Positions 34,760-51,792 of a stretch of DNA of 64,000 nt are shown in pieces. Both the position numbers and the translations under genes were made by a program. Source of the DNA: an uncultured Myxococcales bacterium. Its GTDB lineage: Bacteria > Myxococcota > Kuafuiibacteriia > Kuafuiibacteriales > Kuafuiibacteriaceae. Under the pieces are notes generated by a model that was given only the letters and a program-made list of their open reading frames with translations, was not told the DNA's origin and did not search any database. Numbering within the stretch: the stretch's first letter is position 1; every line of letters begins with the position of its first letter. The stretch lies in the NCBI GenBank assembly GCA_964463485.1, contig CAYXDO010000049.1, forward strand, positions 1,889-65,888, given 5' to 3'.

Positions 34760-35001
34760 GGTGACCGGACTCATCGGATTCGCAGCTTCGCGACCACGAC
34801 CGAATTACCGGATCAACTTGGTCTCCGATTGGCCAAGGCCGCACTCGCCATCGGAAAGGACGCCGTCCGCCTCAGATGAGGGTGACCAGACTCTTCGGAT
34901 TCGCAGCTTCGCGACCACGACCGAATTACCGGATCAACTTGGTCTCCGATTGGCCAAGGCCGCACTCGCCATCGGAAAGGACGCCGTCCGCCTCAGATGA
35001 G
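34760..35001. repeat. 121-bp direct tandem repeat, 2 copies (34760-34880, 34881-35001)
   Basis: The units differ at 2 positions by manual comparison. Confidence 0.9.
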
Positions 35002-35301
35002 TATACTTTCTCGCGCCGAACGCGCCCGAGCTCAGCTTCGATGACTCACTCCGAAGCTCCGGCAATCTCCGCCTCCAGCGCTCGCAGCGAAGCCAAGACG
35101 TCGCGCACGTCGGACGCATGGATTCCGGGCCCAACCCTCGTGCGTACATCGAGAAATCGTCGCTCGAACCTGGCCAGCTCGGGCGGCTCGACTTTGGAGC
35201 TCGACGCGCGGATCCGTGCGAAAACACCAACCAAGCGGTCCTCCAAAAAACGTTCGCCTTCGAACGAACCCAGATCCAACTCTGCCAAGCCACCGCGGGC
35301 C
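34994..35301 (-). pseudogene. Orphan copy C of the 3' end plus flank of the kinase at 49132-51792
   Basis: Aligns to 49080-49387 with ~25 mismatches. The reading frame is intact (LAELDLGSFEGERF...ASE*). Confidence 0.9.
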
Positions 35302-35313
35302 CGGGCAGTGCCC

Positions 35314-35455
35314 TTCGAACAGTGCCGGGCACCGCTCGAAATGGGCGGCACCGCTCGAAATGGGCGGCACACCGCTCGAAATGGGCGAAATGGGCAAGGC
35401 AGCTTCGTATTCGGTAGGAGCGCTGTTCGAAATGGGTCGGCACCGTTTGAAAAGG
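35314..35455. repeat. Cluster of short repeats with core GCACYGYTYGAAA (one inverted copy, then about five direct copies)
   Basis: ttcgaacagtgcc at 35314, ggcaccgctcgaaatgggc x3 (35328-35386), variants at 35420 and 35439. Confidence 0.85.
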
Positions 35456-35473
35456 CGCACTGCTGTATGCCGA

Positions 35474-48784: not shown

Positions 48785-48837
48785 GGAGGTGGCTGATTTT
48801 GCTCTGGCTTCTGTTCACGGCTCCCGACCCAGGCCGC

Positions 48838-48866
48838 AGAATCTCACCCGTTGGACCGGGCGTCAA
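48838..48866 (-). promoter_or_regulatory. Possible sigma-70 promoter for the giant gene (TTGACG-N17-GATTCT)
   Basis: Good -35 and weak -10, ~13 nt upstream of GTG 48818. A small inverted repeat CCGCA-AAAA-TGCGG lies just upstream of the -35. Confidence 0.35.
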
Positions 48867-49131
48867 GCCGCATTTTTGCGGAGTTTGCCGGGCCGCCACA
48901 CACACTCCGGGACAGGGCTGGAATTGTCCGCCCGCAGAACAGGGCAGGCAGCCGGAGTCAAAGTCGGGGTCGGGGTGGGCCCTCGCCATCGGAAAGGGCG
49001 CCGTCCGCAGCCTGCTGCCGTTCGGTGACTCGGTCTGGGCAGTGCTACCTTGGGAAGGCCGGCTGGTTCGCTTGGTGCCCAGATGAGTATACTTTCACGC
49101 GCCAAGCGCGCCCGAGCTCAGCTTCGATGAC

Positions 49132-51792
49132 TCACTCCGAAGCTGCGGCAATTTCCGCCTCTAGCGCTCGCAGCGAAGCCAAGGCGTCGCGCACGTCCGA
49201 CGCATCGATTCCGGGCCCAACCCTCGTGCGTACGTCGAGAAATCGTCGCTCGAACCTGGCCAGCTCGGACGGCTCGACTTTGGCGCTCGACGCGCGGATC
49301 CGAGCGAGAACACCCTTCAGACGCTCCTCCAAAAATCGTTCGCCTTCGAATGAACCCAGATCCAGCTCTGCCAAGGCACGGCGGGCCGCCACTTCGTCTC
49401 GAGCGGCCACCGCGTCTCGCAGCCTTCGTCCGACTTCGGCCGTCGAAGGCACCAACAACAGGTCCGAAAGCTCGAGCCCACGGGAACGTAATTCCGCGCT
49501 GACGGTCGTTCGGACGGCATCTGCGGCCAGGGCCTTCGCCGGCCGCCGTTCCGCCGACGAACCGCGGCGGAGCCCCACCGGAAGCGACTTCGACTTCACC
49601 CTCGCCCATGGCTTGGTGCTCTCCTGGGCCACTGTCGCCGTCGGTGAAAAAACGGCCGAAGCCTCTCGATCCACCTCTGACGCGACCTCGAGTCGCGGAG
49701 CTGCGCTCGCCTCCACACTGGGCGCGGGCTCAGCAGCCAACTCGACCGGCGCTCTCTGCCCCAACAACTTCGCGCCCAAGAGTACGATCGCGATCGACGC
49801 CAAGCACACCGTAAGAGCCGCGATCAACCGAGCGAGCCGGCCCCTCGGAGCCGCGATGACACGAGTCGCGGCTCCTACCCCAGCCAAGAGCTCGACCGAC
49901 GCGAGCGCCTCCGAGGCAGTCGGCCGGTCCCTGACCTCTCGGCACAACATCGCCGTGATGAGCGGCCCCAATGGACCCGCACGTTCGCTGACCACCGGCG
50001 CTCCCGACAGCCTCCGCTCAGCCACCTGCCGCGCCGGCCCCGTGAATGGCCCGGCTCCGTCCAGCATGTAGATCGCCAACAGCCCAACCGAATAGATATC
50101 CGTTGGTGCACCAACGATCTCTGGATTTTGAAGCTGTTCTGGGGACAAGAACCGAAGCGTGCCGACCACGTCGCCGGCGCGCGTGAGGCGGGTAGACTCG
50201 CTCTCCGTCGGCAGAGCGACCCCGAAGTCGAGCACCTTCACCCGACCGTCGTCGAGCTTCATCACGTTGGCCGGCGATAGGTCGCGATGCACGTAGCCCG
50301 CCGCATGAACCTCCTCCAGGGTGGCCAGCACCGAACGAATGATCGGGGCGACCTCGTCCAGCGGCAACGGCCCACGATCTTCGACGATCCCGCGCACGGT
50401 CTTGCCGCGCAAGAGCTCCATCACCATGTAGAGGCGACCGTCGGGTGTGGATCCGCGGTCGATGACCTTCACCAAGCCCTGGTGACTCAACTTCGTCAGC
50501 GCGTCGATCTCGCGGCGAAAACGCTCGTGGGCCCTTCGATGGGTTGCCGGCGTGTGGAGGATCTTGAGCGCGTAGGTCTCGCCGGAGTCCTCACGCACGG
50601 CTTTGAAAACCTCCCCAAAGCCGCCACGGCCGATCGACGCCTGAATTCGATACTCACCGAAGCGAATCGCCGTCTCGTCCTCCTCCGGCGCCGTTGTTTC
50701 GCTCTCTTCGGGCTTGGCATCCCGTGGCTGCGCTCGCTGAGGATCGGGCGCCGTCACGGAGTCAGCCCGTGCCTTCGTGGGCTCGCTCGATCCGGCGGAC
50801 TCCGACGACAGCAGCGACGGCACCGCGACTGCATCGGGCACGTCCGCATTCTCTTCAGGGACCGCAAACAACGCGCTCAAGGGGCTCCGCGCCTTCGGTC
50901 GACCGCCTTGACGCAGACCCGCCATGACCTCGACGAGTGTGTCGCGAGGATCGAGATCGTCACGACTCGCGATCGCTGCGAGCAGCGCACGCCGAAGCTC
51001 GAGGGCGCTCTTCGTGCGGCCCTCGCGCTGAGCGACGAGGGCGCGGGAGATGGGTGTAATCAGGTCGGGCGGGAGACCCGACGGCAGCTCGACCGGCTGT
51101 CCCGCGATCACCTTGCGCCGCAAGGACTCGGAGGCCATCGGATTCTCACCCGAGAGGACCCGAACCAGCACGAGCCCGAGCGCAAAAATATCCGCGCGCG
51201 GATCCGCGACCTCCCCGCGATGCTGCTCGGGCGCCATCCACTCCAGCTTCCCCTTCGAAATGCCCACCTTCGTTCGCGCTTGGCGAGCGTGCGCGAGCGC
51301 GATCCCGAAGTCCGCGAGCTTCACGTCCCCGGCAAAGGAAACCAACACGTTCTCCGGGCTCACGTCCCGATGCACGACACCCAATGAACGTCCGTCACCG
51401 TCTTTCGCGGAGTGGGCATGCTCCAGCGCACGCGCGAGCTCGGAGACTATGAACAACGCCGCTGTCTCGGGGAGCAACTCGCGCCGCTCGGCGCGCTGAT
51501 CTTCGAGCGTCGAAAGATCGACGCCGTCGATCAACTCGAGCGCCTGGAAGGGCGCCCCGTCTAGCTCGCCAAAGTCGAGCAGCGAGACGATGTTCCCGTG
51601 TGAGAGCTGGGAAAGAATTCGGGCCTCATCCAAGAACCCAGCCACGAGCTCGGGATCGTCGAGACTCTCTCGGAGAAGCCGCTTGATGGCTACTCGCCGT
51701 GAGAACCCAAACGCCCCGTGTGATGTCGCCTCGTAGAGGTCCGCCATCCCCCCCCGCTGGATCAGCCGGACCAACTCGTAGCGGGATGCCAC
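49132..51792 (-). CDS. Ser/Thr protein kinase with two tandem kinase domains, TM helix and C-terminal helical domain
   Basis: First domain HRDVSPEN/DFG/WMAPEQ; second domain IGRGGFG/HRDLSPAN/DFG/FLSPEQ. Confidence 0.92.
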   Translation of the reverse strand: MASRYELVRLIQRGGMADLYEATSHGAFGFSRRVAIKRLLRESLDDPELVAGFLDEARILSQLSHGNIVSLLDFGELDGAPFQALELIDGVDLSTLEDQRAERRELLPETAALFIVSELARALEHAHSAKDGDGRSLGVVHRDVSPENVLVSFAGDVKLADFGIALAHARQARTKVGISKGKLEWMAPEQHRGEVADPRADIFALGLVLVRVLSGENPMASESLRRKVIAGQPVELPSGLPPDLITPISRALVAQREGRTKSALELRRALLAAIASRDDLDPRDTLVEVMAGLRQGGRPKARSPLSALFAVPEENADVPDAVAVPSLLSSESAGSSEPTKARADSVTAPDPQRAQPRDAKPEESETTAPEEDETAIRFGEYRIQASIGRGGFGEVFKAVREDSGETYALKILHTPATHRRAHERFRREIDALTKLSHQGLVKVIDRGSTPDGRLYMVMELLRGKTVRGIVEDRGPLPLDEVAPIIRSVLATLEEVHAAGYVHRDLSPANVMKLDDGRVKVLDFGVALPTESESTRLTRAGDVVGTLRFLSPEQLQNPEIVGAPTDIYSVGLLAIYMLDGAGPFTGPARQVAERRLSGAPVVSERAGPLGPLITAMLCREVRDRPTASEALASVELLAGVGAATRVIAAPRGRLARLIAALTVCLASIAIVLLGAKLLGQRAPVELAAEPAPSVEASAAPRLEVASEVDREASAVFSPTATVAQESTKPWARVKSKSLPVGLRRGSSAERRPAKALAADAVRTTVSAELRSRGLELSDLLLVPSTAEVGRRLRDAVAARDEVAARRALAELDLGSFEGERFLEERLKGVLARIRASSAKVEPSELARFERRFLDVRTRVGPGIDASDVRDALASLRALEAEIAAASE

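Follow-up and report, generated by a model that had tools for sequence, protein, structure and literature searches.

How does a bacterial chromosome come to carry an intact gene followed by two further copies of its own 3' end, set apart by unrelated genes and with no recombinase gene nearby? The question is raised by a 64,000-nucleotide stretch of DNA from an uncultured Myxococcales bacterium (assembly GCA_964463485.1, contig CAYXDO010000049.1, forward-strand positions 1,889 to 65,888), here called the window and numbered from its first nucleotide. Read along the minus strand, the locus consists of an intact tandem Ser/Thr protein kinase gene, a first group of genes (cargo 1), an orphan copy of the kinase gene 3' end (tail B), a second group of genes (cargo 2), a second orphan copy (tail C) and a 121-bp unit present twice. 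Our favoured reading, held tentatively at a probability of about 0.45, is that the locus is the passive scar of at least two successive homology-anchored insertions at the 3' part of the kinase gene, which would make it a chromosomal polymorphic-toxin island.

Three nested copies of a kinase gene 3' end

Self-BLAST of the window together with an in-register alignment revealed three direct, nested copies of one segment, the 3' end of the kinase gene, at the positions given for them in an earlier note on this DNA. The reference copy, tail A (49002-49551, minus strand), comprises the last 140 codons of the kinase gene and 130 nt past its stop codon. Tail B (37612-38161, minus strand) lies 11,390 bp from A and retains the complete helical domain encoded by this segment along with the 130-nt flank. 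Tail C (34994-35301, minus strand) retains the last 85 codons and 52 nt of the flank. B aligns with A without gaps over 550 nt at 98.5% identity, and the mismatches are concentrated: 486 nt are identical, and 8/8 mismatches fall within 60 nt at B's gene-5' end. C aligns with A, also gap-free, over 308 nt at 91.9% identity (the earlier estimate was about 92%), keeps the reading frame and has its stop codon at the same position as A. The length and identity of these repeats make an origin by chance impossible. In the same self-BLAST, cargo 1 and cargo 2 had no sequence in common.

The gene-5' boundaries of both orphan tails are sharp. Measured in 20-nt windows, identity drops from 0.9 to 0.3 for both, in B at A coordinate 49551 and in C at about A coordinate 49387. 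The two orphan starts are thus 164 nt apart and have no common att-like core. Sharp and differing 5' boundaries are what illegitimate joins are expected to leave, and not what a single att core would leave. On the downstream side, a flank of 130 nt is common to A and B, and C has only the first 52 nt of it. A 27-nt box (GCGGACGGCGYCCTTTCCGATGGCGAG on the minus strand) lies at 48982-49008 (minus strand) and recurs in each 121-bp unit after C, at 34965-34991 and 34844-34870; no copy follows B. The A/B homology runs out at the box's first bases, and C reaches the box after a 72-nt gap relative to A. Outside the repeats, local alignment showed no extended homology between the three tail flanks except this box, the remainder being gappy noise.

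Pfam searches of the sizeable open reading frames (ORFs), on both strands of the array and in the rest of the 64-kb window, found no integrase, transposase or resolvase, in agreement with the earlier statement that the array holds no integrase or transposase. Likewise, no IntI-type protein and no reverse transcriptase were found in the window with Pfam, and the window contains no tRNA genes and no Rfam families. The flanks are made up of ordinary chromosomal genes, namely dnaG, rpoD, a murC-like Mur ligase gene, and genes for an aminotransferase, desaturases, further kinases and FHA-sigma54 activators. A megablast search of the cargo-1 unit (37612-49001) against plasmid records gave no match, nor did a blastn search of the cargo-2/tail region (34600-38500) against phage records.

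The same array in a near-clonal sister genome

The 90% identity cluster of the kinase has a second member, MBI4815821.1, which is identical at 885/886 residues and comes from the metagenome-assembled genome (MAG) GCA_016208175.1. A 92-kb contig of this sister MAG (loci L014, L015, L020 and L022) is collinear with the window, with flanks that are 100% identical, and it carries the same array in the same order: A, cargo 1, B, cargo 2, C. As a near-clonal sister MAG has it too, the array is unlikely to be a random misjoin. The sister is near-clonal, however, and so its power to test the turnover of cassettes is small. The earlier note held that finding unchanged cargo and an unchanged number of tails in a relative would speak against the serial accretion of cassettes at this kinase; GCA_016208175.1 is formally such a relative, and given its near-clonality a weak test.

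The tails themselves are the places where the two assemblies differ in an informative way. Tail A of the sister differs from that of the window at 49072, 49162, 49187 and 49243, and its tail B differs from that of the window at the equivalents of 49351 and 49365, where sister B has the C allele. The window copies A and B carry one common mosaic, with sister A alleles at the two sites 49351 and 49365 and sister B alleles at the four sites from 49072 to 49243. This shared mosaic is explained equally well as a consensus of multi-mapped reads or as the outcome of two gene-conversion events. In the sister, A and B differ at 14/550 positions. The earlier observation that B is identical to A over 486 bp and then diverges for about 60 bp is therefore true of the window's assembly, with 6 further A/B differences inside this zone in the sister. 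Consequently, a very recent event cannot be read from the perfect identity in the window. The chain of single-nucleotide polymorphisms (SNPs) in the sister, with a spacing of at most 126 nt, separates A and B from entry to exit, which speaks for the order of the array and against a resolution into a shorter chromosome and a circle of 11.39 kb.

Other relatives are remote. No kinase relative above 40% identity was found in GTDB species representatives or JGI metagenome contigs, and the next kinase in a set of 5.8 billion proteins is 43% identical. Exact look-ups of the array proteins, made for contigs with alternative junctions, returned the sister MAG only. Four distant homologues (P0019, P0021, P0005 and P0003, the last a paralogue within the sister genome) have no teneurin gene downstream; at such a distance gene order is uninformative.

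The kinase, its tail domain and the orphan copies

The kinase gene (49132-51792, minus strand) encodes an intact protein of 886 amino acids with two kinase domains (Pfam Pkinase x2, E=2e-77), one transmembrane helix at about residues 655-680 and a complete C-terminal all-helical domain of about 140 residues, here termed the tail. An exhaustive HMMER search placed the tail at the C-termini of other kinases of 580-750 amino acids, one of them 48% identical (P0009) and four more 33-36% identical; the tail is thus a real domain family. In a word-indexed search with the tail alone as query, the sole match was the ORF of orphan B. The AlphaFold2 model of the tail has seven helices and a mean pLDDT (predicted local distance difference test score) of 90, and neither a sequence search nor a fold search with this model gave a significant match in PDB. 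The tail domain is periplasmic and not surface-exposed.

P0009 (locus L021 in Logan run SRR12113421, gene 10001-11752) has a single kinase domain, about 60% identical to the first kinase domain of the window's protein, and the same tail domain without the second kinase domain; its contig stops 30 nt past the stop codon. From this architecture, the kinase in the window resembles the P0009 type with an extra kinase domain inserted. The genome holds several pairs of an FHA-sigma54 activator gene with a Ser/Thr kinase gene (window 1268-4836, plus strand; window 49132-53228; locus L023, 4121-8357). The two genes are co-directional in the pair of paralogue P0003 (contig 41 of the sister) and in the distant homologues, and divergent at the island.

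Orphan B was called as a 174-residue protein (P0001). Reading of the translations upstream of B and C showed no signal peptide or transmembrane helix, and both orphans are for that reason most likely non-functional relics. At the protein level, B differs from A at 2 residues and C at 12/84, scattered along its length. The first 60 nt of B contain 5 synonymous and 2 non-synonymous differences from A, and the ratio of non-synonymous to synonymous polymorphism (pN/pS) between A and C is 0.42; the counts behind this comparison are small. The mostly synonymous character of the B differences, taken together with the A/C ratio, suggests that part of the divergence was gained in working genes, that is, in another lineage.

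Cargo 1: a teneurin-like toxin and a lipoprotein

The first gene of cargo 1 (39890-48818, minus strand; listed as an ORF of 2,964 codons at 39890-48784) encodes a bacterial teneurin-like protein (TLP), a polymorphic toxin. Its Pfam domains are TEN_NHL, NHL, TTR_TEN1-4, FN-plug_TEN1-4 (weak), PKD and Big_9 (Ig), and phmmer matched it to the solved "Teneurin-like protein" structures 9ifo/9pt5 with E=6e-189. Its assignment to the teneurin class rests on the TTR, NHL and FN-plug domains and the structure match, the YD shell not being separately demonstrated. The C-terminus carries an HExxH motif after a weak PepSY match and is otherwise unrelated to known families. The true start is probably the GTG at 48816-48818, as judged from the predicted lipoprotein signal peptide VNRSQSKISHLLVCLLGAEAGC that it would open; a GGGAG Shine-Dalgarno sequence lies upstream. 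A tract of nine C residues (48720-48728, minus strand) sets this Cys-bearing signal peptide one frame off the body of the toxin, and eight would fuse the two. The sister MAG also has nine. The tract could be a phase-variable switch, the mark of a pseudogene or a homopolymer error.

The second gene (38427-39899, minus strand) encodes a lipoprotein of 490 amino acids with signal peptide MSMRACIGLAVFAAC. Its ATG overlaps the TGA of the toxin gene (ATGA), and the two genes are translationally coupled. The protein has no Pfam or NCBIfam match and no homologue in the 5.8 billion proteins, and its ORF is intact and identical in both assemblies. Bacterial TLPs have been described as accessory polymorphic toxins with an immunity gene directly downstream, and those of Myxococcota are predicted to be lipoproteins with signal peptides of the signal peptidase II (SPII) type (Raoelijaona et al. 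2026, PMC13018210). The lipoprotein is presumably the immunity partner of the TLP, by analogy, since TLPs as a rule have their immunity gene downstream (PMC13018210) and the homologue-free state is typical of immunity genes. It is missing from the called genes of the sister contig and from protein records, and annotation pipelines thus seem to miss it (its third-codon-position G+C content, GC3, is 0.65).

Comparison with the sister uncovered three further differences, all in the toxin gene. A tract of 1.05 kb (44380-45434) is 12.9% divergent with a pN/pS of 0.09, inside otherwise identical sequence; a smaller tract (46844-47066) has 11 differences; and a 165-nt in-frame indel lies in an Ig-like repeat (43788-43952). 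The tracts look like imported recombination tracts, or alternatively like conversion from a paralogue. If imported, they would indicate that the population recombines with diverged relatives.

A SUFU-family protein (PF05076, E=1e-15) is encoded at 53419-54495 (minus strand), two genes from the toxin island. Among the immunity proteins of polymorphic-toxin systems, those of the SUKH and SuFu type form a recognised class. At 11557-12213 (minus strand), a single ORF joins a nucleotidyltransferase and a HEPN domain, as a fused MNT-HEPN pair of the toxin-antitoxin type. The sister contig has an annotated PIN-domain pair, equivalent to about 60.5-61.0 kb of the window.

Cargo 2: decayed FN3 and Cys-rich lipoprotein genes

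Cargo 2 contains four genes, all on the minus strand. The fragment nearest to tail B, FN3_1 (36921-37611), matches fn3 and DUF4215 in Pfam as well as TIGR02232. Its 5' end is cut exactly at the end of copy B (37611) and it has no signal peptide. Three-frame reading showed a frameshift at a (GACTCC)n tract (placed at 37490-37523 by TRF), and the C-terminus contains a myxobacterial Cys-rich acidic repeat. It is followed by a gene for a small Cys-rich lipoprotein, Cys1 (36640-36981), with a weak match to the eight-cysteine model TIGR04289 and annotated as an 83-residue gene in the sister MAG. A second FN3-type gene, FN3_2 (35815-36433), has been broken by a frameshift into two ORFs that overlap, and a second small Cys-rich lipoprotein gene, Cys2 (35474-35818), follows. 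FN3_2 is 35% identical to FN3_1 at the amino acid level and Cys2 is 24% identical to Cys1; cargo 2 is in itself the product of an old tandem duplication.

The earlier note had described the cargo correctly, as a giant ORF with a lipoprotein gene and as two pairs of FN3 and Cys-rich lipoprotein genes. It also saw rightly that the most decayed cargo adjoins the most diverged tail, FN3_1 being truncated and frameshifted and FN3_2 split.

The composition of the array sets it apart from its surroundings. GC3 of 6/7 array ORFs (0.61-0.73) is lower than that of the lowest of 22 Pfam-supported flank genes (minimum 0.738, mean 0.78), and Cys1, at 0.750, is just above this minimum. Measured against the flank genes, the z score is -4 for the cargo 1 lipoprotein and -5 for FN3_1.

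Motif arrays at both joins and the distal edge

Each orphan tail is preceded by a short array of related motifs. Junction 1 (38162-38290, minus strand), directly 5' of tail B, contains three tandem units of 20-21 nt (GCACYGTTCGAAAAGCTTC) with the core GGCACYGTTCGAA. This 13-nt core is present six times in junction 2 (35302-35473, minus strand), with three of the copies arranged as 19-nt tandem units (GGCACCGCTCGAAATGGGC, plus strand); the copy nearest to tail C has the orientation seen in junction 1 and is paired, inverted, with the copy beside it. The arrays precede the boundaries of B and C within 12-14 nt. Allowing at most 2 mismatches, the core occurs 8 times in the two junctions versus 1.6 occurrences expected in the whole window. 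It was not found in the rest of the 64 kb, in an 18-kb stretch on a different sister contig or in viral contigs. The arrays were also considered as sigma-54 promoters for the neighbouring FHA-sigma54 activator; a scan for TGGCAC-N5-TTGCW gave chance-level results with no match near the array, and this possibility was rejected. Similarly, no sigma-70 promoters or terminators scored above shuffled controls at the junctions and flanks.

The distal edge of the array is formed by the 121-bp tandem repeat (2.0 copies, 34759-35001). In the sister MAG there is a single unit, and 206 nt (34689-34894) are missing, which correspond to one 121-bp unit plus 85 nt. Short-read contigs from three Logan runs (L016-L018 from SRR12113400, SRR12113402 and SRR12113406) match the window with 100% identity, and each of them breaks off at 34782. 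This is earlier than a repeat break at k=31 predicts, and a population variant may therefore branch there.

Origin of the array

In the favoured reading, successive insertions anchored in the kinase gene, the incoming DNA would each time have consisted of a kinase 3' end with new genes downstream of it. On one side it would pair with the resident kinase gene, on the other it would be joined without homology inside the resident tail, and the resident tail with all that lies beyond would be pushed downstream as an orphan. A first event would have brought in the FN3 and Cys-lipoprotein genes and left tail C; in a second, the teneurin-like toxin and its lipoprotein partner would have arrived, and tail B would have been left. 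Afterwards, the three tails would have exchanged patches by gene conversion while cargo 2 decayed and the array was inherited vertically. No dedicated recombinase would be needed. We infer which event came first, that the cargo is foreign and that the DNA came in as a linear molecule. In outcome, a circular donor entering by a single (Campbell) crossover is equal to a linear donor, and the sequence does not discriminate between the two; duplication with deletion would also end in this product.

What carries this reading is, in the first place, the layout, with nested direct repeats split by unrelated cargo beside a kinase gene that stays intact, in flanks of core genes and with no recombinase gene in 64 kb. 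Cargo 1 belongs to the polymorphic-toxin class and has a coupled gene, and both the accessory status of such toxins and displacement arrays have already been described (PMC13018210, PMC5361080). The low GC3 of 6/7 array ORFs, the divergence of the orphan tails that appears to stem partly from functional alleles of another lineage, and the import of diverged DNA to which the 1.05-kb toxin tract points are in line with it. Finally, the same array is found in an independently assembled sister MAG, where SNPs phase A and B separately. The serial, homology-directed capture proposed in the earlier note stands as far as it concerns the pattern of gene, cargo and orphan end (now seen in two assemblies), the differing sharp tail starts (49551 and 49387), the lack of a recombinase and the atypical GC3; the recent event implied by the 486-bp identity does not, being undercut by the sister.

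Several points weigh against successive insertion. No genome was found without cargo 1 or cargo 2, or with other cargo at the kinase, the locus being known from one lineage only, and the sole close relative has an identical array. A and B differ by 0-1.2% over 486 nt versus 13% over 60 nt where an even divergence is expected, so that later gene conversion or a second import must be invoked. The same 13-nt motif array stands at both joins, an agreement not expected of chance joins. Directly after B, FN3_1 is already cut short, and an extra deletion step is needed. Lastly, the low GC3 of the array could have come from relaxed selection.

Among the alternatives, an internal rearrangement without horizontal transfer survives best, although we consider it unlikely. 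In this scenario, the segment from the tail to the downstream genes was duplicated in tandem, and deletions, patchy gene conversion and imports did the rest. A and B are near-identical over 486 nt, as a within-genome copy would be, and where the 60 nt diverge, an imported tract of the kinase gene could be ending, comparable to the tract in the toxin gene. The cut of FN3_1 at the end of copy B resembles a deletion endpoint, and cargo 2 is already an old tandem duplication. The two cargos share no sequence, however, so several precise deletions would be required, and tail C departs from the other copies in its 5' boundary, its flank (72-nt indel and 27-nt box) and its 8% divergence. Neither the atypical GC3 of the array nor the recurrence of the same motif array at both joins is explained by rearrangement.

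More doubtful is the complete model of the earlier note, a working recombinase-free platform in which circular cassettes with a kinase tail enter by Campbell-type crossover, accumulate and loop out again, for example as an 11,390-bp circle. The structure of the product is exactly that of an insertion-duplication. Long near-identical direct repeats are good substrates for RecA, and the 550-bp direct repeats with 97.5-100% identity are of this kind. The assembly graph is compatible with a circle and a deleted chromosome, yet no circle, empty site or alternative cargo was seen and the sister MAG shares the array. Where cargo meets tail, the motif arrays could be the sign of a reproducible cassette end, but how the first circle acquired a 5'-truncated tail would still be unexplained. 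The state of the genes, with cargo 2 pseudogenised and cargo 1 frameshifted, is unlike that of cassettes in circulation, and neither the 11.39-kb unit in plasmid records nor 34600-38500 in phage records found a match. A more elaborate proposal takes the kinase tail and the GGCACYGTTCGAA arrays together as a reusable capture site, in which toxin or surface-protein cassettes that end in a motif array would be joined through host functions or an unlinked recombinase and leave as circles, and in which the orphan tails would re-pattern the periplasmic sensor domain of the kinase by conversion. We regard it as a long shot, somewhat less probable than the simple platform.

An assembly artefact appears improbable to a further degree. 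Here the repeat of 486-550 bp would have been misresolved, with two strain variants (kinase-cargo 1 and kinase-cargo 2) merged or a consensus copied into both positions. It would account well for the common mosaic of sister A-type and B-type alleles in window A and B, which is what a consensus of multi-mapped reads looks like, and it fits with the Logan contigs from three runs that all end at the array edge and with the exact look-ups of array genes, which gave no other contigs. The unique joins (lipoprotein gene/motif array/diverged 60 nt of B; flank of B/FN3; Cys2/motif array/C) are, however, impossible to obtain by k-mer collapse, and a second assembly with its own SNPs, the 206-nt indel and another toxin allele keeps the order and keeps A and B distinct. 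The artefactual part is likely to be the perfect A/B identity only, and not the array.

Least probable of all, and very unlikely, are two site-specific integrative islands at the kinase 3' end, with the integrase lost or acting in trans and the motif arrays as binding sites for a recombinase or accessory protein: the intact gene with an orphan end beyond the island is the classic footprint, and the tandem and inverted 13-nt arrays at the island ends resemble arm-type sites, but the 64 kb contain no recombinase gene, the orphan 5' boundaries lie 164 nt apart without a common core, repeats of 308-550 bp are far longer than att cores, and the motifs stand at one end only of each cargo. Two other candidates were rejected outright, a diversity-generating retroelement on account of the missing reverse transcriptase and of mismatches without an adenine-specific pattern (the orphan base is A at 2/25), and an integron on account of the missing intI-type protein and of repeated units that are gene fragments of 308-550 bp with cargo of up to 11 kb.

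Relation to known systems

Sequential displacement of effector-immunity modules is known from type VI secretion system (T6SS) arrays of Vibrio cholerae (Kirchberger et al. 2017, PMC5361080). Illegitimate recombination facilitated by homology was proposed there for T6SS orphan immunity arrays and for Rhs orphan 3' ends (PMC5361080), and "C-terminal displacement" at Rhs loci (Jackson et al. 2009) and orphan cdiA-CT/cdiI modules of contact-dependent inhibition (CDI) loci (Poole et al. 2011) are cited in the same paper. The view taken in the earlier note, that the arrangement is not a described system, was thus too strong, since displacement by this route has been described for T6SS arrays and Rhs loci (PMC5361080).

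The likeness to displacement arrays is close in several respects. A conserved anchor lies upstream, new toxin and immunity DNA stands beside it, and the older module is displaced as a decaying orphan together with a piece of the anchor. No dedicated recombinase takes part, and here too a polymorphic toxin comes with a partner gene. The differences concern the anchor, the unit and the scar. The anchor at our locus is the 3' end of a separate kinase gene, whereas in the published arrays it is the constant part of the toxin gene; in line with this, self-BLAST found no second fragment of the toxin gene in the window. The unit here is a whole toxin operon, theirs a C-terminal tip. The orphan carries a complete folded kinase domain, and both joins have a 13-nt motif array. 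Published cases also rest on variation between strains, whereas here the sole close relative is near-clonal with the same array and the next is at most 43% identical.

Integrase-borne islands, integrative and conjugative elements and prophages that insert at gene 3' ends keep the gene intact by supplying a substitute 3' end, and they can accrete in tandem at one att site. Our locus is alike in that the kinase is intact owing to a replacement 3' end, the displaced native end is found on the far side of the island, and the order is gene, island, repeat, island, repeat; it differs in having no integrase or mobility genes, repeats of 308-550 bp and two orphan starts that do not coincide. Campbell-type insertion-duplication leaves one extra 5'-truncated copy of the homology, is reversible through recombination of its repeats and is known mainly from the laboratory and from plasmids. 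An extra 5'-truncated copy flanking inserted DNA is what it shares with the array.

In silent-cassette systems of the pilE/pilS type, an expressed gene is accompanied by promoterless 3' partial copies and variants are moved by gene conversion. The kinase locus likewise has an expressed kinase gene followed by 3' partial copies, and variants are shared in mosaic fashion between the two assemblies. Unlike silent cassettes, the copies differ little (B by 2 residues, C at 12/84) and have no hypervariable segments, and the domain is periplasmic. For the sites on which the comparison would turn, namely the four at which window A has the B alleles of the sister and the two at which sister B has C alleles, a consensus artefact is an equally good explanation.

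Cargo 1 is typical of TLPs in its TTR, FN-plug and NHL domains and its adjacent downstream gene. It has an SPII-type signal, but one that is out of frame (C9), and it is atypical in that the downstream gene encodes a 490-residue lipoprotein without homologues. A kinase neighbour is not mentioned in the published description of TLPs, in which the word "kinase" occurs 0 times (PMC13018210). Overall, the locus works like a polymorphic-toxin displacement array, but with its anchor taken from a neighbouring kinase gene, and the defining features of integrase islands, integrons and diversity-generating retroelements are lacking.

Implications

The comparison of the two assemblies carries a warning, namely that exact identity between repeats in a short-read MAG should not be taken as evidence of recency. 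The locus also provides further context for bacterial teneurin-like toxins, in the form of one encoded beside a pair of kinase and FHA-sigma54 regulator genes.

Polymorphic toxins and their immunity genes decide the coexistence of bacteria, and the gain of such modules without mobile-element genes has so far been largely inferred. The locus described here would extend sequential displacement in three ways: the anchor may be a neighbouring regulatory gene and not the toxin gene alone, whole 11-kb operons of teneurin-like toxins would serve as the unit, and the scar left behind may be a complete extra copy of a protein domain.

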